Numbered from the stretch's first letter, positions 2,706 through 55,881 are shown. The stretch: 64,000 bases of DNA from Spirochaetota bacterium (GCA_024276015.1 JAJRXZ010000004.1:20216-84215), one strand, 5' to 3'. A program made the numbers and translations. Notes: generated by a model from the sequence alone, not told the origin.

Positions 2706-2843
2706 TGAAAATTAAAGCAGTAATCCCGCCTTTTTGGAATATCTCAAATTACCCCATTTTATAGATTAATAATTAATTCCCTTATACCGATGATTATGAC
2801 AGGGATTTTTACTGAATCTTAATATTTAAGGCATATAATAAGT

Positions 2844-3743
2844 ATGGACAGAGTAAAGGAAGAGAGCAGAAAATTGATCATACGGAATAGATTGAGGGAT
2901 CCCTACAGTTTTGAAGATATTCTGGGAATTAAGGATATAATAATTGAGAGAATAAAAGAGATCGATTTTTCGAGAGTGACCTTTATAGAACCATATTCCA
3001 TGCTTTCTCTGCTTCTTTTGGGCAGAATTTTTCTCAGAAGCCGCGGCGAGAAACTCAGAATTATCAATATACCGGTAAATATTCATCAATATCTGGCCAG
3101 AATGGATTTTCTGAAAACAGGGATGTATGATATCCCTGAGAGATTAAATGAAAGACTTTTTTTGAAAAGAAGCGCCTTCAGCTCTCGTGTAATAGAAATA
3201 ACCGAGATCCCCAATAAAGAGGTGGAAAGCATTAAAGTAATTTCGGAAATTATTGAGTTGTTCAGAAAGAGAGCCAGACATATCCTTAAGTACTGGATGT
3301 CCGATGTTATAATTGACCTCTTTGTTACTGTTATTTCGGAATTATGCCAAAATATCTTTGAGCACAGTCTGGATTCGGGATTTCTTGCAATTCAGACTTA
3401 TTCGCTTGGCCGGGAGAATATACTGAGGGTTGTAATTTCCGATTCCGGTATCGGTATTGAAAAAAGTTTTGATGAAAGATCGGATATTAAGTATGATTCG
3501 TCCGCCAAGTTAATTGAAATGGTGCTCACCACTCCGATTTCAAGTAAGCGTAAATTCGGTTACGGACTCTGTCAGGTTAACGCAATTGTGGAAAAATTAA
3601 AGGGAACAATTTTTATACGGTCAGGTAACGCTTCCGTAACCGGTTTATATCATAAGAAGACCAAAGGTTCGGCATATATGTTCTTAAAAAATAACCTGAG
3701 TTATTTTGAAGGTACTCAGATATCAATAACGCTGTCCGGATAA
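2844..3743 (+). CDS. STAS-like N-terminal domain fused to a GHKL (HATPase_c, RsbW/SpoIIAB-like) ATP-binding domain
   Basis: N-terminus IDFSRVTFIEPYSMLSLLLLGR...RIINIPVNIHQYLARMDFLK is STAS-like. C-terminus carries an N-box-like ELCQNIFEHS, a G1-like ISDSGIGI and a G2-like FGYGLCQV. Confidence 0.7.
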   Translation: MDRVKEESRKLIIRNRLRDPYSFEDILGIKDIIIERIKEIDFSRVTFIEPYSMLSLLLLGRIFLRSRGEKLRIINIPVNIHQYLARMDFLKTGMYDIPERLNERLFLKRSAFSSRVIEITEIPNKEVESIKVISEIIELFRKRARHILKYWMSDVIIDLFVTVISELCQNIFEHSLDSGFLAIQTYSLGRENILRVVISDSGIGIEKSFDERSDIKYDSSAKLIEMVLTTPISSKRKFGYGLCQVNAIVEKLKGTIFIRSGNASVTGLYHKKTKGSAYMFLKNNLSYFEGTQISITLSG

Positions 3744-3755
3744 GGGCGGGGGAAG

Positions 3756-4307
3756 ATGTATATTAATATAAAGAAAATTGCAGAAGAATTAGAAATAAAC
3801 AGATCGGATCTGATCGCAAGATTAAACGGGCGTTTGATCTATCAGAAGGCTTTAAAAATTATTGAAAATATTAATAGAGGCGAAACAGTAATTCTGGATT
3901 TTCAGGGTATAAGGGTTGTGGATTCGTCTTTTATTGATGAATTTATTATCAATCTTATAAAGAGGTCTATTGACAGTTCCAAAGATTTTTATATTAAACT
4001 TAAAAATCTTTCCAAAACAATTGAAATTAATATTGACTCTGTATTGAATACATATTTTAATTATAACAATGAGAAGATCGCCGTCCTTACTGAAGAAATT
4101 TGTTTGAACAATAATTTTTTCATTGGACCTCTTAATGATATTGAAAAGGATATTATCAATTATTTAAGGGTGAACAGATCGGGAGCTTTAAGTGATCTTG
4201 AAGATTTTACAGGTTTAAACAGGGGAATCCTGAAAGAAACAATGGACTTCTTATGTAAAATTAAACTTGTAAAGAAAGATCGCAAAGATCTATTCAGCTC
4301 TCTCTAA
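3756..4307 (+). CDS. DUF4325 (STAS-like) domain protein with a probable C-terminal winged-helix
   Basis: VILDFQGIRVVDSSFIDEFIINL matches the DUF4325 signature as I recall it. The tail INYLRVNRSGALSDLEDFTGLNRGILKETMDFL looks like a wHTH. It starts 13 nt after the previous gene. Confidence 0.6.
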   Translation: MYINIKKIAEELEINRSDLIARLNGRLIYQKALKIIENINRGETVILDFQGIRVVDSSFIDEFIINLIKRSIDSSKDFYIKLKNLSKTIEINIDSVLNTYFNYNNEKIAVLTEEICLNNNFFIGPLNDIEKDIINYLRVNRSGALSDLEDFTGLNRGILKETMDFLCKIKLVKKDRKDLFSSL

Positions 4308-4402
4308 GTTTAAAATCTGTAGTTTTTTTCAATAAAAAGTGATCATTTCTTGATCATATTGTTAAAAGACCGGTTAAGTTTAATTATATTTGAATATTAC
4401 AA

Positions 4403-4876
4403 ATGAAAGGACTTGCAAGGAAAGTAAAATCGAAAAAAAAGGATGAATATCTCTTCGGATTGTTAGCATCTTACAAATCGAATCATACATATATAAAGAT
4501 CCTTGAGTCCGAAGAGAAGGGGCTTATTGCCCTTTTTTTAACCGATAATCCGAAGAATTGGTCCAATGTTCCTGAAGATAAATTCAGCAGTTACCGGGAA
4601 TTAAGGCGGCTGGAAATTGGCGCTGATAAATTGTCCCTGAAGTTCCTTCTTCCTGAACAGATCGTAAGGATCAGAGGCCCCTTATTAAACATAAAGATTC
4701 CCCCGGGAAAAGTCGAGATCATTAATAGCCTTAGCGAGGGCGGGTTTTATATTCTTGAAGCTCCGGTTAAATACAAACAGAAAATCTTAATTGGTGTGAA
4801 TAAAATTTTAAACTTAAGCCCCCAGAAAAAGTACGAGATTATCGAAAAGTGTTTAGCTGAGAGCCAGGAATTATAA
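4403..4876 (+). CDS. hypothetical protein (157 aa)
   Basis: Long ORF co-directional with its neighbours. The stop lies 1 nt before the next start. No motif recognised. Confidence 0.55.
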   Translation: MKGLARKVKSKKKDEYLFGLLASYKSNHTYIKILESEEKGLIALFLTDNPKNWSNVPEDKFSSYRELRRLEIGADKLSLKFLLPEQIVRIRGPLLNIKIPPGKVEIINSLSEGGFYILEAPVKYKQKILIGVNKILNLSPQKKYEIIEKCLAESQEL

Positions 4877-10764: not shown

Positions 10765-11448
10765 TCATAGATCATTATGATTTTTAATTGATGTATTTGC
10801 TGCGAACATTGCCGAGAGGAATCGAAATTCGCCGGCAATATCGAAATTCGTTATAAAAACATCCTTCACTCTGTTACTCAGAACAATCGGTGAAAAATTT
10901 ACAATCCCTTTTATGCCATAGTTGATAAGATTGTCTGCCATTTTTTTTGCGGATCGGCCCGGTACCGTAAGAACAGCCAGTTCGATTTTTTCTCTCTTGA
11001 TAATTTCAGGCAATTCATATGTTGGGTATAATGGTATGTCGGTTTTAACGGTTTCCAGTCTGTTAATGCTTGAATCGAATCCTGCAACTATTTTGAAATT
11101 CTGAGTAAGCAGATCTTTATAATTCAGCAGAGTTGTTCCCAGTTTACCGATTCCCACAATGCATGCATTTCTTACAACATCGAATCCGAAGGCGGAATTA
11201 ATATGGTTTTTAAGCTCTTTTATATCATAACCTGCTCCGATCCCTCCCCCTTTTTTGAGATATGATATATCCTTGCGGATACTATGGGAAGGGACGCCGA
11301 TCCTTCTGCCTATCTCTTTTGAAGAGATTGAGATATCGCCGGTTTTTTCTATCTCATCCAGAAGGCTGTATATTTTGCACAACCTTCTGACAGAAGGCGG
11401 CGGGATTTTTTTCAATTTTTTATTTCCGGATAAATGGATTTTCATCAT
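10765..11448 (-). CDS. rex: redox-sensing transcriptional repressor Rex
   Basis: IPPPSVRRLCKIYSLL...SSKEIGRRIGVPSHSIRKDISYL (wHTH) plus Rossmann motif CIVGIGKLGTTLLNY. I chose the ATGATG start at 11448 because the longer track ORF (to 11472) would run into a Rex box. Confidence 0.88.
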   Translation of the reverse strand: MMKIHLSGNKKLKKIPPPSVRRLCKIYSLLDEIEKTGDISISSKEIGRRIGVPSHSIRKDISYLKKGGGIGAGYDIKELKNHINSAFGFDVVRNACIVGIGKLGTTLLNYKDLLTQNFKIVAGFDSSINRLETVKTDIPLYPTYELPEIIKREKIELAVLTVPGRSAKKMADNLINYGIKGIVNFSPIVLSNRVKDVFITNFDIAGEFRFLSAMFAANTSIKNHNDL

Positions 11449-11456
11449 AGGTACAA

Positions 11457-11474
11457 TTGTGAAATAAATCACAA
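11457..11474. promoter_or_regulatory. Rex operator (ROP) box 1
   Basis: TTGTGAAATAAATCACAA is a near-perfect match to the known Rex palindrome TTGTGAA-N4-TTCACAA. It lies 9 nt upstream of the rex start. Confidence 0.8.
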
Positions 11475-11540
11475 ATTACGTCAAGAAATTTACCCCGTAG
11501 GTGTGGAAAAAGAGGTTGAATAATTAATTGCATTAAATAA

Positions 11541-11558
11541 GTGTGATATATTTCACAA
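11541..11558. promoter_or_regulatory. Rex operator (ROP) box 2
   Basis: GTGTGATATATTTCACAA. The right half is perfect and the left half has 2 mismatches. It lies 120 nt upstream of the DUF1015 start. Confidence 0.65.
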
Positions 11559-11609
11559 ATTTATAATCATTTTTAGTTGAAAAAAAATAGCTATTAAAAT
11601 ATGTTGAAT

Positions 11610-11658
11610 TATACCGATCGTTATTGAGAATTTCCATATTAAATGAATCGGTATATGA
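11610..11658 (+). repeat. conserved upstream element, copy A (module 1 only)
   Basis: TATACCGATCGTTATTGAGAATTTCCATATTAAATGAATCGGTATATGA is identical over 49 nt to 14688-14736. 9-bp inverted arms TATACCGAT/ATCGGTATA. It ends 19 nt before the ATG at 11678. Confidence 0.9.
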
Positions 11659-11677: not shown

Positions 11678-12907
11678 ATGGCTGATATAAGTGCATTCAG
11701 AGGATTACGACCCAAGAAGGATCTGGCAAAAGATGTTTCGGAATTGCCCTATGATGTGGTGAGCAGAAGTGAAGCAAAAAAGATTGCTGAAAACAATGAA
11801 TACAGTTTCTTCCATATTACGAGACCTGAAATTTCTATGTCCGATGATACCGATCCCTATCATGAAAGCGTTTACCAAAAGGGAAAGGAAAATCTCCATA
11901 GGTTTATAAGAGATAAAATACTTATTAAGGATGAAACACCGAAATTATATCTATATACCCAGATAATGAATGAGCGTGAGCAGACCGGACTTGTTGCCTG
12001 TGTAAATATTGATGATTATATAAACAATAATGTTAAGAAGCATGAATTGACCAGAGAAGACAAAGAGAGAGACAGAACAAGGCACCTTGATATTCTGAAT
12101 GCAAATACGGGACTTGTATTTTTACTCTATCGTGAAGACGGATCAAAAAAAGGTCTCTTTGAAAGAGCCAAAGCTGAAGAGCCCGAATACGATTTCGAAA
12201 CCGATGACGGAATACGTCATATTGTAAGAGTAATAAATGATGAAGATCTGATCAAATCTTTTGAAGAAAGTTTTGCAGAAAATACTCTTTTTATTGCGGA
12301 CGGACATCACAGAGCGGCGTCTGCGGTCAATGTGGGGCTAATGAGGAGAAAAAGGGAGAAAAATTTTACAGGAAAGGAAGAGTATAACCGTTTTCTTGCA
12401 GTAATATTTCCTCATGATCAGTTGAAGATCTTACCATACAATAGGGTTGTGAGGGATCTATGCGGCTTAAATACCGAGGATTTTATATCGAAAATTTCCG
12501 GCAGATTTGTTGTTAACCGGAACGGTGTGAAAGTTCCGGGAAGCAAGAGATCCTTTTCAATGTATATTGAGGGCCGGTGGTATTCGCTGGTCTACACCGG
12601 CAGTATGGAAGGAGATACTGTGGATAAACTTGATGTGAGGATCCTTCAGAAGAATATTCTTGAACCGCTGCTTGGAATTAAAGATCCCAGAACTGATAAA
12701 AGAATAAATTTTATCGGTGGTATCAGAGGTGTTGATGAACTGGAAAAACTTGTAGATTCGGGACAATACAGGGTTGCTTTTTCTCTTTATCCTACCTCTG
12801 TTGAGGAATTAATGGCTGTTGCTTCAGAAGAAGGCATTATGCCTCCCAAATCCACCTGGTTTGAACCGAAATTGAGAAGCGGTTTGTTTATTCATCTTTT
12901 AAGCTGA
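11678..12907 (+). CDS. DUF1015 domain-containing protein
   Basis: 409 aa. N-terminus SAFRGLRPKKDLAKDVSELPYDVV and internal ADGHHR fit the DUF1015 family pattern as I recall it. Confidence 0.75.
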   Translation: MADISAFRGLRPKKDLAKDVSELPYDVVSRSEAKKIAENNEYSFFHITRPEISMSDDTDPYHESVYQKGKENLHRFIRDKILIKDETPKLYLYTQIMNEREQTGLVACVNIDDYINNNVKKHELTREDKERDRTRHLDILNANTGLVFLLYREDGSKKGLFERAKAEEPEYDFETDDGIRHIVRVINDEDLIKSFEESFAENTLFIADGHHRAASAVNVGLMRRKREKNFTGKEEYNRFLAVIFPHDQLKILPYNRVVRDLCGLNTEDFISKISGRFVVNRNGVKVPGSKRSFSMYIEGRWYSLVYTGSMEGDTVDKLDVRILQKNILEPLLGIKDPRTDKRINFIGGIRGVDELEKLVDSGQYRVAFSLYPTSVEELMAVASEEGIMPPKSTWFEPKLRSGLFIHLLS

Positions 12908-14263: not shown

Positions 14264-14322
14264 GCGTAACATGTTTTAAATGACCGGCAAATATGCATAG
14301 GCTGTTAACAGTTATATGGAAT

Positions 14323-14441
14323 CAATTATTAACTCGACTTAGGCGTTTTTTATATAATATGATGAGCAAATTTGCGAATTTTATTCGTTAACATAATGCA
14401 GAAAAAACGGGTGAAAATCGCCTAACTGGAGTTATTAATTG
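14323..14441. repeat. imperfect 23-nt inverted repeat flanking about 73 nt (MITE-like or hairpin element)
   Basis: CAATTATTAACTCGACTTAGGCG (14323-14345) against the reverse complement of CGCCTAACTGGAGTTATTAATTG (14419-14441) gives 18/23 matches. Confidence 0.3.
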
Positions 14442-14687
14442 TTTTGCCGAACCTGCTCTATATAATTTTTATGTAAAAACCAATATATTTAAAAAATATG
14501 TTTGCCAAATAATATTTATATTAAATTTATGTTAATTGCATAGGATATTATAAAAAAAATATTGCTATTTCCACTGTTTTTTTCAGATTGACTTATAGGA
14601 TGAATAGAATGGAGAAGTTTACGCCTGTAGAGAAATAATTTTACAGCAAATATCTATGGATGAGACTTCCTTCTGTTTTGATTGGAC

Positions 14688-14790
14688 TATACCGATCGTT
14701 ATTGAGAATTTCCATATTAAATGAATCGGTATATGATTTAAGCAGGATTTTGCCCTTTGCCAAGGGATAAAATATAGGCTTTTTGATATA
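14688..14790 (+). repeat. conserved upstream element, copy B (modules 1+2+3)
   Basis: Module 1 is identical to copy A. It is followed by CAGGATTTTGCCCTTTGCCAAGGGATAAAAT (hairpin) and GGCTTTTTGATATA. It ends 37 nt before the ATG at 14828. Confidence 0.9.
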
Positions 14791-14827: not shown

Positions 14828-15970
14828 ATGTGCCGATTAGCTTTAAAAACATCATCAACACCATTTTCACCTTACAGCGTTCTGGAAGCCATGGAAGCAA
14901 TGCAGGAAGGGTATGACGGAAGCGGACTTGGTCTTCTTCTGCGCGGTCTTGAATTTTTAGATTATAATTATCAGACCAAAGACCCTATTTTCTCAGGCAT
15001 TGCCCATACCCATGAAGCTTTAAACCGCCTTGATTCATTTATGCAGGAGAAGGGGTTTACTTTAAAGTATGATCATGAGTTCAATGTTGATCATTCAAAG
15101 GTGGAAGCCCCTGACAGATATAAATATCTTCTCCGTATATACAATTTTCCTGAAATATGGAAAGATTATGATAAAGACAGGATCGAACATGAATTAATGA
15201 TGACCCGCCTTGAATTAAGAAGGGATGGAGAGAATCATAATGGAGACCTTACGCTTTTTTCTTTCTGGCCCGAGGTTGTTATTATTAAAGAGGTTGGCTG
15301 GCCTCTGGGCATTGGGGATTCCCTTGGTCTGTCTGATAACAGAATAAAGGCAAGACTGGTAATGGCTCAGGGCAGGCAAAATACAAACTGGGGCATTAAT
15401 CTGTATGCATGCCATCCCTTTTTCCTTCAGGGTGTTTCCACAATGACAAATGGTGAAAATACAGCCTTTATTCCTATTAAAGAATGGCTTATGGGCGTGC
15501 AATTTCCCGGTTATATAGGCTACCAGAGCGACAGTGAAGTATTTACGCATATTTTACATTATACTATTAAAAAGCTGAAACTCCCGCTCGAAGTTTATAA
15601 ACACATTATCACTCCGCTGAAAACAGAGGAGCTGTTAGATCATCCTCAGGGAGATTTTCTAAGAGGCTTGCGGGATGTAACCAGAAAGCTGATCATTGAC
15701 GGGCCCAATTGTGTTATAGGGTCTTTACAAGATGAAACATGTTTCATGGTAATGGACCACAAGAAATTACGTCCCGGTACAGTGGGCGGAAAAGAAGGCG
15801 AATGGGCAATGGCTTCCGAGATGTGCGGCGTTGACGCAATGATTCCCGAAAGGGACCGTTCCCTCGATTTTCAGCCAATGCGAGAGAACATGGTAATAAT
15901 ATCCCCAGACCGAAAGGAGTATAAGATATGGTCACAATTCGATCCATACCCTCAACACCGGGTAGCCTGA
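14828..15970 (+). CDS. glutamate synthase, class-II glutamine amidotransferase subunit (archaeal-type GltB domain 1)
   Basis: Begins MCRLA, with the Cys2 nucleophile of Ntn amidotransferases. It heads an operon with the FMN and GXGXG subunits. Confidence 0.75.
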   Translation: MCRLALKTSSTPFSPYSVLEAMEAMQEGYDGSGLGLLLRGLEFLDYNYQTKDPIFSGIAHTHEALNRLDSFMQEKGFTLKYDHEFNVDHSKVEAPDRYKYLLRIYNFPEIWKDYDKDRIEHELMMTRLELRRDGENHNGDLTLFSFWPEVVIIKEVGWPLGIGDSLGLSDNRIKARLVMAQGRQNTNWGINLYACHPFFLQGVSTMTNGENTAFIPIKEWLMGVQFPGYIGYQSDSEVFTHILHYTIKKLKLPLEVYKHIITPLKTEELLDHPQGDFLRGLRDVTRKLIIDGPNCVIGSLQDETCFMVMDHKKLRPGTVGGKEGEWAMASEMCGVDAMIPERDRSLDFQPMRENMVIISPDRKEYKIWSQFDPYPQHRVA

Positions 15971-33014: not shown

Positions 33015-33072
33015 CCCTTTTTTATCTCCGAAACAAATCCCTTCCCCTTTACACGACGGGGCAGGGCTCAAT

Positions 33073-33240
33073 GTACAGGCAGGTCTTCTGGCTTACGGAT
33101 CACTCTACTTGCTGCGCCTTCCCATAAGACTTGATAATGACTTACAGTGGCATTCTGCAGCGTTCGTTCCCGATTACAGCGGCGGGCCCGCACCCGAATT
33201 TCACGGGTTTCACTTTTAATCCCATAATGGGAACCTGTAC
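33073..33240 (-). promoter_or_regulatory. cobalamin (B12) riboswitch aptamer
   Basis: The minus strand reads GTACAGGTTCCC...GGGATTAAAAGTGAAACCCGTGAAATTCGGGTGCGGGCCCGCCGCTGTAA...GTAAGCCAGAAGACCTGCCTGTAC. P1 is GTACAGG/CCTGTAC and the B12 box is AGCCAGAAGACCTGCC. Confidence 0.92.
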
Positions 33241-33445
33241 ACTATATTACACAGTTATCTGAACATGTGATTTATATCTCTCAATTGTCAATAAAAAATA
33301 TATTTATTTTATGATGTTCCGGTTTCAATGAGAGGGTAGTAGAAGGAATTTGTTCTTTAAAATAATAAAAGAAACTACGTATTAATGCTTATTTACTTGA
33401 TAATAAGAATTATGTAAATTATAATTGCTGTAATATTCAGGTCAT

Positions 33446-33549
33446 TATACCGATCATAATTGAAGATATTATATTAAATGAATCGGTATATGATCTGATC
33501 AGGATTTTACCCTTTGCAAAGGGACAAAATCGATATTTTTTGATATATA
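33446..33549 (+). repeat. conserved upstream element, copy C (modules 1+2+3)
   Basis: TATACCGAT-N27-ATCGGTATATGAT, then CAGGATTTTACCCTTTGCAAAGGGACAAAATCGATATTTTTTGATATAT. It ends 63 nt before the ATG at 33613. Confidence 0.88.
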
Positions 33550-33612: not shown

Positions 33613-36600
33613 ATGTTAGAGCACCTATCTCCTTATTCCAGACCGCCCCTCTTCATAATGATGTTTCTGTTCTTTGCTTTTCCCAAATGCAGTGATCTGA
33701 GGGATTACCCCGATACGCAAATATCCGAATGTTCCGCTTCCCAGTGCCATCCATCAACGCTGTTAAAGCAGTACCCTCCGGCAAGCGGTAAACATACCCG
33801 GCACTTAAACAGAGGCTTAATATGTGAGAATTGCCATAATGATTATCTCAACAGACCTCAACACAAGAATGGGAAACTGGATCTTTCCGGAGATACAGTT
33901 ATTGTATATTTTGATAAACTGAACGGTTCCACAATATGGGACAATTCATCGGACGCCTGTTCTAATATTGACTGTCACGGCGGAGCTCCTTCTTCCATAA
34001 GCTGGTATGGCGATACAGCCGGTTGTACCGAATGTCATACTGGGGGGAGTACAATTGATCCTGTATCAACCAATGGCGAAAAGGAGAGCGGCAAGCATAT
34101 ATCTCATGTGCAAGATCAGAATATATCATGCAATTCGTGCCATAACGATTATATGTCGAATGCCATGCATATTAATGGAATATACGGCAGGGCCGAAAAG
34201 AACCCTGTTGTTATTTTTGATGCATCCAATCCTTGGGCTCAATGGGATAATGAAAATACTTCATGCAGTCTTATGGATTGCCACGGCACGCTTGACTGGT
34301 ATTCCACAGGATCATATTCGTGCCTGTCATGTCACGCGCCCGGAACGACCTATGATCCCTTAACTATCAATGGTTCCGGGAATTCGGGAAAGCACATAAA
34401 ACATGCAGGCAGCCTCAATTATGATTGTGAAAAATGTCATAAGAATTACGGAGATGCCCCTGAACACAGGAACGGCCTTCTGGATACGGGTGATCCCTCT
34501 GTTATGATGACCTTTTTCGATTCAACAAATCCTGCAGGGCAGTGGATTGGCGATACAGGAGAGGGTAAGGGCATGTGTTCTTCTCTTGCATGCCATGGGA
34601 CATCAGTTCCGGAATGGTACGGGACCGCTTCATGGTCTCTGCCCTCATGTGATACGTGCCACGCTTCTGTAATAAACTCAAGGAGGCAGATTCTTGGAAC
34701 AGGCGGAGATTTTGGGGCTAATCCCGGAATAAAGTCTCATCATATTACCGGCAGTGCAGATCCTTCTGATGAGCAGTGCAAAGTATGCCATGATCTTTCT
34801 TCCCATATGGGCGGAACCGTTATCCTTAATAATGCCGATGACGGTACAGGTATTGTATATGATCCTTCAATTCCTTCAACGCTTGAGGATTTTTGTTTAA
34901 GCTGTCACGATCCAAACGGCGCATCTGTGACTTTTGCATCTGTCGGATCACCGCTGGATCCTTTCGGCGAAAAATCAGGATCGGATCTGCTGGGCATCCC
35001 CCCTTATTCCTATGCAGCAAGGATCAGCGCAAGCTGGCAAAAAAAATACGGCCACGGATCAACTAATACCGATCCTGCGGATTTTCAGAATGTAAATGTA
35101 AAAATGAGAACAACCGGGAGCAGGCTTACATGTATGGGCAGCGGCGCGCCAGGTACCGGATGCCATGGAAGTAACGGAAATATCAATGCTCACGGATCGG
35201 TAAATGAGGTTATTTCAGCGGCACAGTTTGATTATTCGGCAATGTCTCAGATCTATGACGAGTCATGGTTTTCACTCTGTTTTAACTGCCATTCTTCTTA
35301 TCCCGGCGTTACAAAAGAGGATATTCTCGGCGTAAAAGAAGACGGAATTCTCGATATGAGATACGGCAATATGAAAAGCAGGCCCGGAGATGCCAATAAG
35401 GAATTTAATCCTCCTTATTATATTTCACGCGTTGTAACTCACTTTGCAGATCACAATGCAGGGTCGATTTATCTTGGAGGAATGCCTCAGGGCATAATTA
35501 ATGCAGGCGGTTATATATGGGTGGGATTGACCTATGACGATAAAGTATTAAAATTAGATAAATCCACAGGAGAGATATTAGCGGTAATAGCGGCTGATTC
35601 AAGTCCCGGTGTGGTGAACGGCTTTGCCTATGACAGTGACAATAATTATGTATGGGTTACAAATCAGGGCAGCAGCAGCATCGTCACTAAAATAAAAGCG
35701 GATGATAACAGTGTTACAAATGTTGCAATAGCTCAATCCGGGCAGTATAGCATTATATATGCCAATGCCTCAATATGGCTTACTGCAAACGGCAGGCTTC
35801 TGCAGTTAGATCCCGCAACAAACAGTACTTTAAACACTTATGATTTTTCGCCGAAAAGTCTCATGGGTATGGCTTACGACGGACAGTATATCTGGCTGGC
35901 CAGCGGCAATGAGGTCATGAAAATAGATCCTCTCGACGGATTAACTGTTAATACTGTTTCGGTTGGATCGAGTCCTTATTCCGTAAGATACTATGACGGA
36001 TATATATGGGTTGCAAACACAGGAGGCGGATCTATCACAAAAATTGATCCCTCATCCGATTCCGTGCTGGCTGATATTTATGCGGGCGATCATCCCATAG
36101 ATATGACCTATGACGGCCAGTATTTATGGGTAGCTCTCAACAGTTATAACGGCGTGTCCAAAATTGATATTTCTTCCGATACGGTGATTGACACATATCA
36201 GATGAACGGCAGATCTCTTGGTGTTGCTTATGACAACTCAGGACATATTATGACAACCGATATTGACAATTATTCTTTAACAAAACTGAATATATCGACC
36301 GGTCTGATGGATGGCGACGCTTACGGGATCAATGATTCGCCTGTGCATCTGACAGCTACTAAAAACAGTATGAACCTTCACTGGTACCACATGAGGTTTT
36401 ATACGAATTTCAGAGGCAACGAGATCCCTGCTCCTGATACGGGTGCGGGTGAATATTTCAAAAGAGGAGAACTTTGCGATAATTGCCACAGAATATTTGA
36501 ATTCGGCAAAAACTTATCCTGCGTTAACTGCCACGATGTACACGGCTCCGATAATCCGAACGGTGCGGTTTACGACGAGATCGGATATGCGAGAGTGGAC

Positions 36601-36765
36601 GGCTTCTGGGGGTCTTACGGGAAGCTGCCGGATCTGATCCCCGATCTTGATCAGTATCCCGCATATTGCGCATATAACTGCCACAATGCGGATCAGTATC
36701 TCCATCAAGACAAGATGGATTTAAAACCGCCTAACAAGGCATGGTTTGATCCTATTACCGAGTGA
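33613..36765 (+). CDS. multihaem c-type cytochrome family protein (11 CXXCH plus 4 CxxxxCH) with an embedded YVTN/NHL-like beta-propeller
   Basis: I chose the ATG at 33613 because it follows AGGAG. Hydrophobic N-terminus. Motifs: CENCH, CTECH, CNSCH, CLSCH, CEKCH, CDTCH, CKVCH, CLSCH, CFNCH, then about 6 repeats of the ...YIWVAN.GGGSITKIDP... type, then CDNCH and CVNCH. Confidence 0.8.
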   Translation: MLEHLSPYSRPPLFIMMFLFFAFPKCSDLRDYPDTQISECSASQCHPSTLLKQYPPASGKHTRHLNRGLICENCHNDYLNRPQHKNGKLDLSGDTVIVYFDKLNGSTIWDNSSDACSNIDCHGGAPSSISWYGDTAGCTECHTGGSTIDPVSTNGEKESGKHISHVQDQNISCNSCHNDYMSNAMHINGIYGRAEKNPVVIFDASNPWAQWDNENTSCSLMDCHGTLDWYSTGSYSCLSCHAPGTTYDPLTINGSGNSGKHIKHAGSLNYDCEKCHKNYGDAPEHRNGLLDTGDPSVMMTFFDSTNPAGQWIGDTGEGKGMCSSLACHGTSVPEWYGTASWSLPSCDTCHASVINSRRQILGTGGDFGANPGIKSHHITGSADPSDEQCKVCHDLSSHMGGTVILNNADDGTGIVYDPSIPSTLEDFCLSCHDPNGASVTFASVGSPLDPFGEKSGSDLLGIPPYSYAARISASWQKKYGHGSTNTDPADFQNVNVKMRTTGSRLTCMGSGAPGTGCHGSNGNINAHGSVNEVISAAQFDYSAMSQIYDESWFSLCFNCHSSYPGVTKEDILGVKEDGILDMRYGNMKSRPGDANKEFNPPYYISRVVTHFADHNAGSIYLGGMPQGIINAGGYIWVGLTYDDKVLKLDKSTGEILAVIAADSSPGVVNGFAYDSDNNYVWVTNQGSSSIVTKIKADDNSVTNVAIAQSGQYSIIYANASIWLTANGRLLQLDPATNSTLNTYDFSPKSLMGMAYDGQYIWLASGNEVMKIDPLDGLTVNTVSVGSSPYSVRYYDGYIWVANTGGGSITKIDPSSDSVLADIYAGDHPIDMTYDGQYLWVALNSYNGVSKIDISSDTVIDTYQMNGRSLGVAYDNSGHIMTTDIDNYSLTKLNISTGLMDGDAYGINDSPVHLTATKNSMNLHWYHMRFYTNFRGNEIPAPDTGAGEYFKRGELCDNCHRIFEFGKNLSCVNCHDVHGSDNPNGAVYDEIGYARVDGFWGSYGKLPDLIPDLDQYPAYCAYNCHNADQYLHQDKMDLKPPNKAWFDPITE

Positions 36766-40204: not shown

Positions 40205-40606
40205 TCAATATAATGTAATGTAAGGTTTTAGTAAACAGCAAAAAAAGTATAATTTAATATTTTCGTCTGGAATATATTGGGTCATGCATATTACACGGTG
40301 GGCAACTTCAAAATAGTCGCCCGAACCTCCCATTACAAGAATTGACGATATTCCCAAATCGGTATAGAGCTGTTTGATTTTATCTATACTGCTTTTTGAA
40401 GAGAATGTCTCTTCGGGGAATTTAGACAGTTTCTGTGAAACTCTGACTCTGATCCGGCTGGGAGTTGCAAAGGGGTCCCCCTGAACATGGTCAATATACA
40501 GTGTAAAGAATTCATCACGGTAAGTATCTTTAATGTTTTTGTATGCTTTATAGCTGCGGTTATTAATTTTTAATATTGTTGATTTTAATTCGTCAAAGCG
40601 TTTCAT
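40205..40606 (-). pseudogene. remnant of a COG3044/PF09818-type predicted ABC-class ATPase with a large internal deletion
   Basis: The N-terminal segment (SYKAYKNIKDTYRDEFFTLYIDHVQGDPFATPSRIRVRV) is joined directly to a C-terminal segment (GISSILVMGGSGDYFEVAHRVICM). The Walker A core of a protein that is normally about 550 aa is missing. Confidence 0.6.
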
Positions 40607-43222: not shown

Positions 43223-43294
43223 TTTACCGGTTCTCTATGTTCTGTTTGGGCATATTTCCTTGACTTATATTGAAGAGAATAATTATAAATATAT

Positions 43295-43400
43295 TATACC
43301 GATCATCATTGAAAATTTCCATATTAAACGAATCGGTATATAATTTGATCAGGATTTTGCCCTTTGCAGAAGGACAAAATCGATGCTTTTCGATATATAT
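43295..43400 (+). repeat. conserved upstream element, copy D (modules 1+2+3)
   Basis: TATACCGAT-N28-ATCGGTATATAAT, then CAGGATTTTGCCCTTTGCAGAAGGACAAAATCGATGCTTTTCGATATATAT. It ends 47 nt before the ATG at 43448. Confidence 0.88.
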
Positions 43401-53754: not shown

Positions 53755-55881
53755 TTATTGGTTTGTAATAAGTATCCTTACATCAATAGCCTTTAATCCC
53801 TTTTTCTTTTCATATACCATTACCGGATTGATTTCAATATCCCTTATTTCGGGGCATTTTTGTATTATTGTACTTACTTTGATGATTGTGTCAACAACGC
53901 CTTCAATATCTTTTCTTTTACTTCCTCTGGCGCCGAGAAGAAGGGGATATGATTTGATCTCGCTGAGCATTTTTGCCGCTTATTTCCTGTTCAGAGGCAG
54001 TCCTCTGAAAGTAATATCCTTCATTATCTCAACATAGATGCCTCCGAGGCCGCACATTACAATGGGCCCGAATGATGGGTCTCTTCTTGCTCCGATAATA
54101 AGCTCAACATCGGGGTCAACCATTTCACTGACTTCAATTCCGTCAATTCTTGCGTCGCTTTTGTAGGATTTGGCATTGTATATTATTGCTTCATAGGCAT
54201 CGATGGCTTCTTCATCCTTTTCAATGTTAAGAATTATGCCTCCGGCATCGCTCTTATGGAGGATATCTCTGGAAACGATCTTCATAACAACAGGATAACC
54301 TATTTCGCCGGCAAAGGCCAGCGCTTCCTCGAGGTTATGCGCTATTTTGGCAGCAGGTATGCTGATGCCTGTACTTCCGACGATTTCTATCCCCTCGCTG
54401 GAAAAGAGGAAGTTTCGTCCCTCTGCAAGGGCATTGGTAATTATTGAATTGATCGGTTCGGTGCATATATCGGCTTCGTCAACCGAATCCGAATATTCGT
54501 CAATATATTTTTTATATTTGTATGATGCAGCCAGTGATGATACTGCATCCCTTACGTCTCCGTAAACGGGAATACTTTCTTTTTTAAGAGTTAAAATTGA
54601 GTTTTCAACTGATGCGCCGCCTACTATTGCATAGCTGATGGGTTTCCCTCTGTCAAAGTGTGTTTTACAGGTATCTCTTATCATGGGAGTGAGGTTGTGG
54701 GAATCGAATGTTGCAGTTTCGCAATAGAGAGCAATTGTAGAGTCCATATGTTTGCTCAGAGCAGGCGCAGAAAGCGCCAGGACGTAGTCCTCCGATACTG
54801 CGCCCCCGGTAATATCTACGGGGTTTTTTGTTGATCCGAAGGATGGAGTGGCAGGTCCAAAAACCTCTTTAAGTATCTCCTGGTCGTCATATAGTTCGAT
54901 CCCATACTTCTCACAGGCGTCTGTGGCAAGAACCCCAATTCCTCCGCCGTTGGTAACAATTACGCATCGGCTGCCTTTGGGTCGGGGACTTGTGGACAGA
55001 AATTTGCACCAGTTAAAAGCTTCTTCAATGCTGTCTGTCCTTAAAACGCCGCACTGTTTCATGATAGCGTCAAAAACCGCGTCTGAACCGGCAAGGGATC
55101 CGGTATGCGATGCAGCAGCCATGGCGCCTCTTTTTGACCTTCCCGATTTGATAACTACTACCGGTTTTTTCAGAGTTGCCCTTTTGAGCGTTTCGATGAG
55201 AACTTTCCCGTTTTTTACTCCTTCAATATACATAAGTATAACTTTGGTCTCGTCCTGTTCTGTCAGATATTCAAGAAGTTCGGCTTCGTCAAGGTCGGAT
55301 TTATTTCCAATGGATACTATTGCAGAAAGCCCTATGTTATCAACAGCGGTTTTACCTATCATGGCAATCCCCAGGGCTCCGCTCTGTGTGAGTATGGCAA
55401 CATTGCCCGGCATGATCTTTGATGCTGAGAAGGTCGAGTTCAGCGATGATGACGACGAGTAGAGCCCGAAAATATTGGGCCCCAGAATCCTCATTCCTGC
55501 GGATCTCGCTATGGATACGATCTTTCTCTCTTCTTCAAGGCGCCCGATTTCGGAGAATCCGGAAGTTATAATCTGGACATGCTTTACTCCTTTATCTGCG
55601 CAGTTTTGAACCGCTTACGTTACATATTGCGCCGGAATAGCAATTGAAGCAACATCAACAGCGCCTTTAATATCCAGAATATTTTTATATGCTTTTCTGC
55701 CCGAGATCTCGCCTCCTGCCGGATTTACCGGATAAACTTTGCCTTTAAAAGCGCCCTCTATTATATTTTTTAAAATTATGTGACCTATTTTCTCCCGGTT
55801 TTTTGATGCGCCGATAACTGCAATGCTTTCCGGTTCAAAAAGAGATTTAATGGCACTGTTCTTTGTTTTTATTTTGTCCAT
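53755..55881 (-). pseudogene. ADP-forming acetyl-CoA synthetase (fused alpha/beta, about 709 codons) interrupted by two in-frame TAA codons
   Basis: Three track ORFs (55881-55615, 55494-53980, 53970-53755) share one frame. TAA codons sit at 55617-55615 (GTA ACG TAA GCG GTT) and 53982-53980 (AGG AAA TAA GCG GCA). Homology-like sequence continues across both (CoA-binding IAVIGAS, ...ITSGFSE..., ATP-grasp, ...LLLGARG...EINP). Confidence 0.7.

Follow-up and report, generated by a model that had tools for sequence, protein, structure and literature searches.

Four copies of a promoter-proximal repeat in a Spirochaetota chromosome and their probable origin as a propagated cassette

How does the same stretch of about 100 nucleotides come to stand in front of four unrelated genes, and what might it do there? 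The question is raised by a window of 64,000 nucleotides, the whole stretch of DNA analysed here, from a Spirochaetota bacterium (GCA_024276015.1, JAJRXZ010000004.1:20216-84215). The window is ordinary chromosomal DNA, 91% coding and 40% G+C. Its genes include groES/groEL, a serA-serC-rex cluster beside a DUF1015 gene, a three-gene split glutamate synthase, NAD synthase, a cobalamin-salvage operon, a 1050-aa multihaem/beta-propeller protein, and chemotaxis, two-component and leucine/fatty-acid catabolic genes. The best homologues of the encoded proteins come from uncultured Spirochaetota, the nearest being 68% identical for DUF1015, 56% for the multihaem protein and 50% for the methyl-accepting chemotaxis protein (MCP); protein matches at 100% all lie on one 92,292-nt NCBI contig.

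A first-pass annotation of the window described a two-module element in four copies, each close to the start of an operon. Module 1 consists of two short arms around a variable interior, and module 2 is a hairpin followed by a T-run. Two functions were considered: a sigma70-like promoter within module 1, or a transcribed regulatory leader. When the sequence was read and aligned anew, all four copies were found where that annotation had placed them, on the + strand throughout:

Copy A, 11610..11658, + strand: 49-nt short form, module 1 only; arms at 11610-11618 and 11647-11655.
Copy B, 14688..14790 (end approximate), + strand: full form; arms at 14688-14696 and 14725-14733; module 2 hairpin at 14747-14773; T-run plus GATATA reaching 14790.
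Copy C, 33446..33547 (end approximate), + strand: full form; arms at 33446-33454 and 33482-33490, spacer 27 nt; hairpin at 33504-33530; GATATA at 33542-33547.
Copy D, 43295..43397 (end approximate), + strand: full form; arms at 43295-43303 and 43332-43340; hairpin at 43354-43380; CGATATA reaching 43397.

Every copy opens with TATACCGAT, and ATCGGTATA comes 27 nt (in C) or 28 nt (in A, B and D) further on. The arms are unchanged in eight of eight instances, just as had been claimed, and module 1, the short form, is thus bounded by perfect 9-bp inverted repeats. The full-length form measures about 103 nt in B, C and D. Copy A is the first 49 nt of B, matching it at 49 of 49 positions (96% if the comparison is stretched to 55 nt), and lacks module 2 altogether; both points bear out the earlier description. 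The pattern of the module 2 hairpin recurs three times at no more than two mismatches, where none is expected; its sequence is ATTTTACCCTT in copy C, and in copy D AAGGG is replaced by GAAGG. The annotation had also proposed scanning with a model built from the copies. Such a scan of the window yields the four copies only, and no further significant copy was found in the 64 kb by nhmmer --max with models of the whole element, of module 1 or of module 2. The repeat is the largest repeat family in the window.

Are these binding sites that evolved separately, or copies of one piece of DNA? Over the 103 element columns, gapped identity is 82.5% between B and C, 85.4% between B and D, and 86.4% between C and D. 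It spans the spacers, the linker and the loop of the hairpin and falls sharply at both edges; in the 40-nt flanks it is down to 25-45%, the background level for a window of 40% G+C. Because identity stands at 82-100% across the unit, spacers included, against that level in the flanks, common descent of the copies follows. To judge from this pattern, they are paralogous DNA, not separately evolved sites, and they are paralogous through duplication, transposition or gene conversion. The identity of A and B, which lie just 3 kb apart, points to a recent event.

On top of this shared descent, the arms appear to be held more tightly than the rest. Among B, C and D, 23 of the 103 columns vary, and none of the 18 arm columns does (p = 0.0065, for a set of columns chosen post hoc). 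In the window as a whole, TATACCGAT is the commonest of 5040 9-mers of the same composition, with 11 occurrences against a mean of 0.57. The lack of any variable arm column and this excess together argue for an extra constraint on the arms. Such a constraint would fit recognition by a protein, either a mobilising enzyme or a regulator, and would equally fit a stem.

A regulator that binds the arms would make the element a shared operator. The arms would be the two half-sites, the right one overlapping a -10, and the four operons would be co-regulated; the cassette may still have spread by duplication, with regulation as the function maintained. The invariance of all eight arms while 23 other columns vary is what such an operator would show, as is their palindromic arrangement. 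The right arm also abuts or overlaps a -10-like TATGAT/TATAAT, and the copies are placed non-randomly at gene starts (see below). Yet the spacer and module 2 are conserved nearly as well as the arms, in a unit 80-86% identical, and binding sites alone need not produce that. With their centres 36-37 bp apart, the half-sites fall on opposite faces of the helix. The four targets share no common function, and no candidate regulator is linked to them; Rex adjoins copy A, but its boxes differ in sequence. No arm pair lies at the DUF1015 or multihaem orthologues, nor in 82 kb of distant relatives. Given this balance, we think a shared operator rather unlikely.

Single arms are also in surplus. At one mismatch or fewer, TATACCGAT occurs 40 times in the window, where 14 +/- 3 are expected, and 32 of these sites lie outside the four elements. 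Exact single arms are found elsewhere in the window at 2783, 28972 and 40358 (about 0.6 expected), and the groES leader holds a 1-mismatch arm at 519-527. The surplus could come from k-mer or codon bias, or reflect half-sites scattered through the window. One of the exact arms belongs to a longer resemblance:

Candidate decayed fifth copy (short form), 2783..2826, + strand: left arm exact; a lead only.

Here an exact TTATACCGAT is followed by a 24-nt spacer and then by ATCTTAATA, in which the right arm survives at 6 of 9 positions; TGAATC is retained. The stretch stops 17 nt ahead of the ATG at 2844 of a HATPase_c protein, oriented and placed like copy A. As a copy of the element it falls below nhmmer significance (E 2-11), and it may be a short form in decay.

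The second clue is where the copies lie. Each is followed at once by a gene on its own strand:

Gene after copy A, ATG 11678, + strand: DUF1015 gene, across a divergent intergenic region common to rex.
Gene after copy B, ATG 14828, + strand: first gene of the split glutamate synthase.
Gene after copy C, ATG 33613, + strand: multihaem/beta-propeller gene.
Gene after copy D, ATG 43448, + strand: MCP-cheW pair.

The distances from copies A, B, C and D to these start codons are 19, 37, 63 and 47 nt, the values first reported, and for the multihaem and MCP genes the start codons match those of database proteins of identical length (P0124, 1050 aa, and P0123, 611 aa). The downstream genes are non-homologous (DUF1015, a class II amidotransferase/glutamate synthase, a multihaem cytochrome and an MCP), and so are the upstream ones (Rex, a hypothetical protein, CobU and a hybrid response-regulator kinase). 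We placed four elements at random positions and orientations within intergenic DNA and counted the trials in which all were in sense orientation and no more than 70 nt from a start; this happened in 0.6% of trials. The link to gene starts that the first-pass annotation had suspected is therefore non-random (four of four copies intergenic, in sense and within 63 nt; simulated p ~0.006), for a sample of four copies, and it speaks against a randomly scattered repeat. Of the 14 intergenic regions that measure 150 nt or more, six are divergent, five +/+ and three -/-; four of the 14 hold a copy. No copy lies in a convergent or -/- region, though such regions make up 11 of the 27 intergenic ones that reach 40 nt or more.

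These figures bear on the simplest account of a small repeat, namely that it is a selfish one (MITE-, REP- or ERIC-like) with no effect on its neighbours. Its uniform placement would then be an accident of sampling, or a preference for insertion into TA-rich promoter DNA. Full-length homology, sharp edges, a short form beside a long one and TA at both borders are all in keeping with a selfish repeat, and relatives hold other short interspersed repeats in both orientations; four copies also make for thin statistics. Random intergenic placement, however, gives the observed orientation and start proximity with p ~0.006, the convergent and -/- regions hold no copy, and the arms and several core blocks have been retained despite 14-18% divergence. 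We give a purely selfish repeat a slim chance.

The neighbourhoods of copies B and C have features of their own. The 380-aa product of 14828-15970 (+), the gene that opens the split glutamate synthase operon, begins with MCRL..., in keeping with an amidotransferase with N-terminal Cys; it has no Pfam match at E up to 0.001, and the two genes that follow match Glu_synthase and GXGXG/Pyr_redox_2. The spacer ahead of copy B, at 564 nt, is unusually long and very AT-rich. Its part at 14264-14687 has no annotation or Rfam match and could hold a small gene or sRNA; several promoter-like sites fall within it, among them TTAACT-18-TATAAT at 14329-14358. The 1050-aa protein encoded at 33613-36765 (+) has repeated CxxCH/CxxxxCH multihaem modules and a C-terminal beta-propeller-like region. 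Only one database protein, 56% identical, spans more than 60% of its length. The 1050-aa protein may merit attention in connection with extracellular electron transfer among Spirochaetota. Elsewhere in the window, a 133-aa ABC_N/ABC_ATPase fragment at 40205-40606 (-) overlaps a DnaJ-domain ORF, and an ADP-forming acetyl-CoA synthetase-like gene at 53980-55881 (-) is broken in two, a CoA_binding ORF of 88 aa and a remainder of 504 aa; these fragments may be pseudogenes or frameshifts in the metagenome-assembled genome (MAG).

Has anything of this kind been seen before? The first-pass annotation could assign the element to no known motif. That is true of its sequence, which has no Rfam match, but the phenomenon is known, under the name of putative mobile promoters (PMPs; PMC3488235). 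Matus-Garcia, Nijveen and van Passel (2012, Nucleic Acids Res) recorded more than 4000 PMP families: stretches of 50-100 nt, at least 80% identical, within about 150 nt upstream of non-homologous genes, with upstream neighbours that are non-homologous as well and families that are species-specific (PMC3488235). To illustrate the class they show a 10-member family of the spirochaete Treponema brennaborense whose conserved stretch spans -5 to -120; as routes of spread they name transposon ends, non-autonomous mimics of such ends, recombination-mediated duplication and horizontal transfer (PMC3488235). In our window the pairs B-C, B-D and C-D each share more than 50 nt at 80% identity or better, the pair A-B is borderline in length, and the genes on both sides are non-homologous. 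The element thus belongs among PMPs, an operational class and not a mechanism, and its own promoter role is putative, as judged by consensus matches. Compared by description, it differs from the T. brennaborense family in stopping 19-63 nt before the start codon, where that family reaches -5, and in its modular build with a short and a long form.

Correia elements (CREE/NEMIS) of Neisseria duplicate a TA target, carry 26-bp terminal inverted repeats and occur in hundreds of copies, in both orientations. TA borders every copy of the present element too, but it merges with the TATA that the arms contain and cannot be told from it. Here the one solid inverted repeat is 9 bp long and encloses module 1 only, and there is no sequence similarity to Correia. 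The copy flanks contain no direct repeat longer than TA. We considered a third 'arm' at the 3' end as a terminal inverted repeat and rejected it (two to three mismatches in nine positions; p 0.11-0.61 against shuffles); an IS200/IS605-type element was rejected as well, there being no conserved target tetranucleotide 5' of the copies. In mechanism, Correia elements are the best-studied parallel. They are short intergenic repeats of ~100-150 bp, with inverted repeats and a conserved core, that can create promoters and bind host proteins, and that when co-transcribed form RNase III-sensitive hairpins which change the fate of the mRNA (PMC2649163).

The ERIC/IRU, BOX and RUP families are likewise small, transcribed, hairpin-forming intergenic repeats with modular or shortened variants and a restricted lineage, but none resembles the present element in sequence. 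They are found in both orientations, often at 3' ends or between cistrons, and none is known from this lineage. Finally, the promoter-early stem-loop (PeSL) cassettes of T4-type phages combine a sigma70-type promoter with a stem-loop, are repeated before unrelated genes and have been implicated in modular gene shuffling. They are phage-borne, whereas our window is chromosomal DNA with housekeeping genes.

How far does the element extend beyond the window? The pattern TATACCGATC-N24-30-GAATCGGTATA, sought in 185,579 species genomes and in JGI/ENA metagenome contigs, gave unrelated matches only, with dissimilar interiors, and the same was true of TATACCGAT-N26-29-ATCGGTATA in IMG/VR. The source contig itself was not returned from these collections, so the source genome is absent from them or masked there. 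Searches for the arm sequences in full-text literature returned primers and unrelated matches only. A search for MCP paralogues from the same genome gave NCBI-only matches that all come from GCA_009885955.1, a different relative with 46% G+C.

The first-pass annotation had further proposed a scan of relatives. For this comparison we used 82 kb: a JGI contig with the DUF1015 orthologue (L009), an ENA contig with the multihaem orthologue (L018) and four contigs of GCA_009885955.1, which has 70% protein identity over a syntenic cluster. The element is absent from these 82 kb, as is the arm pair at up to one mismatch per arm (nhmmer and arm-pair scan), in relatives that are distant. In particular, no element lies upstream of the DUF1015 orthologue in L009 or of the multihaem orthologue in L018, a weak test at this distance, the nearest relatives showing protein identity as low as 56-70%. 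The relatives do carry short interspersed repeats that are intergenic and unrelated to ours, which suggests that lineage-specific small repeats are normal in the group. L009 has its own 150-nt interspersed unit with a perfect 26-bp G+C-rich hairpin; the repeats in L009 are at 3633-3782, 12746-12895 (inverted) and 11439-11475. GCA_009885955.1 has a 40-49-nt CTCTGTG...CTCTGTGGCA unit, including a 192-nt tandem duplication; the repeats in L019 are at 213-261, 4129-4482 and 15428-15468.

If the element is a PMP, does it contain a promoter? One reading in the annotation put a sigma70-like promoter in module 1. A consensus scan for -35/-10 hexamers 16-18 nt apart, the -10 having A as its second and T as its sixth base, finds this pair intact in B and D and broken in A and C:

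Internal promoter-like site of copy B, 14709-14737, + strand: TTTCCA-17-TATGAT; consensus match at 9/12 positions.
Internal promoter-like site of copy D, 43316-43344, + strand: TTTCCA-17-TATAAT; consensus match at 10/12 positions.

No internal promoter is called in copy A, where the -10-like hexamer is TATGAC, its final T gone, nor in copy C, where a 1-nt deletion and substitutions abolish TTTCCA. A mirror match, TGGAAA-17-TATAAT/TATAGT, lies on the - strand of A, B and D. Since the arms are palindromic and contain TATA, which yields this mirror match, the promoter-like signal is partly a by-product of the arms. Further sites lie outside the element or at its edge:

Promoter-like site, 11577..11605, + strand: TTGAAA-17-TATGTT; 9/12, consensus match only; ends 4 nt before copy A.
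Promoter-like site, 33397..33425, + strand: TTGATA-17-TATAAT; 11/12, consensus match only; ends 20 nt before copy C.
Promoter-like site, 43270..43297, + strand: TTGAAG-16-TATTAT; 9/12, consensus match only; overlaps the left edge of copy D.

The first of these has its predicted transcription start at the left edge of copy A. The second predicts a start ~13 nt before copy C, so that copy C would be part of the 5' leader. Shuffled versions of these AT-rich spacers give promoter-like matches about as often.

Inverted repeats around a segment with promoter-like matches on both strands recall an invertible, phase-variable promoter switch, in which the arms would be the sites of a recombinase. The segment between the arms is only 27-28 bp, however, and known invertible segments measure roughly 100-300 bp or more. 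A flip would exchange TTTCCA for TGGAAA and leave promoter-like matches in both directions, all copies have a single orientation, and the window is without a recombinase gene. We regard such a switch as very improbable indeed. More broadly, no transposase, recombinase, integrase or invertase gene lies within the 64-kb window.

Other regulatory signals were met in the same spacers or considered for the element itself. Upstream of groES, the region 362-491 combines three CC(T)TTATAAT repeats in tandem with a promoter close to consensus (TTGATA-16-TATAAT with TG), and positions 462-490 form a perfect CIRCE operator, TTAGCACTC-N9-GAGTGCTAA. The groES promoter and CIRCE show that canonical sigma70 signals, and control by HrcA, are in use in this organism. 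Copy C is abutted at its left edge by a promoter-like site on the - strand, ATGACC-16-TATAAT (33445-33418). Two Rex-box-like palindromes, at 11457-11474 (TTGTGAAATAAATCACAA, one mismatch) and 11541-11558 (GTGTGATATATTTCACAA, two mismatches), adjoin rex (10765-11472, -). Their sequence suggests autoregulation of rex and possibly control of the divergent DUF1015 gene by Rex. The second box, upstream of copy A, hints that the DUF1015 promoter likewise precedes the element. Since the first box runs into the GTG listed as the start of rex, the true start may be further in. Our element is not itself a Rex operator, the Rex boxes being separate sequences beside rex. Four readings made by eye were rejected as well: sigma54 for module 2 (the GG to GC spacing is 13, not 11); sigma28 for an arm, from CCGAT (the last two -10 positions are wrong and there is no conserved -35); an ECF-type promoter, TGAxxA-N17/18-CGGTATA (no AAC motif, spacing off); and a leader peptide MNRYMI, ATGAATCGGTATATGAT(T/C)T(A/G)A, present in B and C (D has ACG, not ATG).

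Could the element act instead as RNA? This was the second function first considered for it: transcription would start upstream, and both modules would fold in the 5' UTR, module 1 as a stem of 9 bp closing a loop of 27-28 nt, module 2 as an interrupted stem of 11 bp. Such a leader would act on stability, on attenuation or on translation, perhaps by way of an RNA-binding protein. The promoter-like sites just upstream of A, C and D would provide the transcript, and each stem is predicted in all the copies that could form it, though copy A is without module 2. Folding z-scores of -1.3 to -2.0 on the + strand are modest for a structured RNA, and those on the - strand are equal or better. Covariation analysis of these few copies found no compensatory pair among 20 stem pairs, 17 of which never vary; one stem column pair reads G-U, G-C and A/C, the last a mismatch, and stem cells without a standard pair number 2 of 69 (one sequence, one pair). 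In copy D, two substitutions move the register of the module 2 stem and a 5-bp helix remains, which is weak support for a maintained hairpin. A T-run does follow module 2, but it starts at least 6 nt past the stem, and no intrinsic terminator is called at any copy. The distance to the ribosome-binding site ranges from 19 to 63 nt.

Comparison with Rfam 15 places the element in no family, and a search at E up to 10 of the intergenic regions of B and D found nothing credible. The only hit at the gathering score in the window is a cobalamin riboswitch (118 bits) at 33061-33253 (-), which shares a 674-nt divergent spacer with copy C. Seven cobalamin-salvage genes follow it as an operon on the - strand: CobU kinase, CobS, a His_Phos_1 phosphatase (CobC-like), DBI_PRT (CobT-like), a CobQ-like amidotransferase, CobD/CbiB and a class I/II aminotransferase. 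With the structural results as they stand, an RNA leader as the primary identity of the element seems quite improbable. A regulator and an RNA leader are both partly compatible with a cassette that was copied from place to place.

The element, then, combines full-length homology with sharp edges, a non-random link to gene starts and extra constraint on its arms. We judge it reasonably probable that it is a lineage-specific, propagated promoter-region cassette, a 'putative mobile promoter' or MITE-like. It would have originated as a copy-and-paste interspersed repeat: one unit of ~103 bp, duplicated in sense orientation ahead of at least four unrelated transcription units. Module 1 of this unit is the two 9-bp inverted arms around a conserved 27-28-bp core, and module 2 a hairpin of mixed A/U and G/C pairs with its T-run and GATATA; a 49-bp short form exists beside the full unit. 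Spread would have been by non-autonomous transposition or by recombination/gene conversion.

We infer that the cassette influences expression of the gene behind it, in two ways. In B and D the intact TTTCCA-17-TAT(G/A)AT is probably the promoter, going by its match to consensus, and module 2 would fold into a stem-loop spanning roughly +3 to +30 of the transcript. In A and C this pair has decayed; a promoter just upstream probably reads through, and the element would be a structured 5' leader. The arms are most likely sites of protein recognition, either for a mobilising enzyme or for a regulator whose right-arm site overlaps the -10. A bolder version, in which an undescribed regulator's operator-plus-promoter or a protein-bound RNA leader has been duplicated and so built a single redox- or nitrogen-responsive regulon, strikes us as doubtful. 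If it were true, DUF1015/serine-linked metabolism, glutamate synthase, an extracellular multihaem cytochrome and a chemoreceptor would be wired together, and the birth of a regulon through promoter propagation would have been caught in the act.

The propagated cassette opens no new class of mechanism; it is a species-specific case of a known phenomenon, the reused promoter-region repeat. A repeat of this kind can confuse assembly and motif discovery. In this MAG it marks the likely transcription-unit starts of four operons. If the cassette is active, it would be a clean natural case of transcription rewired by the copying of a ready-made promoter or leader, and it would give a handle on co-expressed genes in a lineage without a cultured member.
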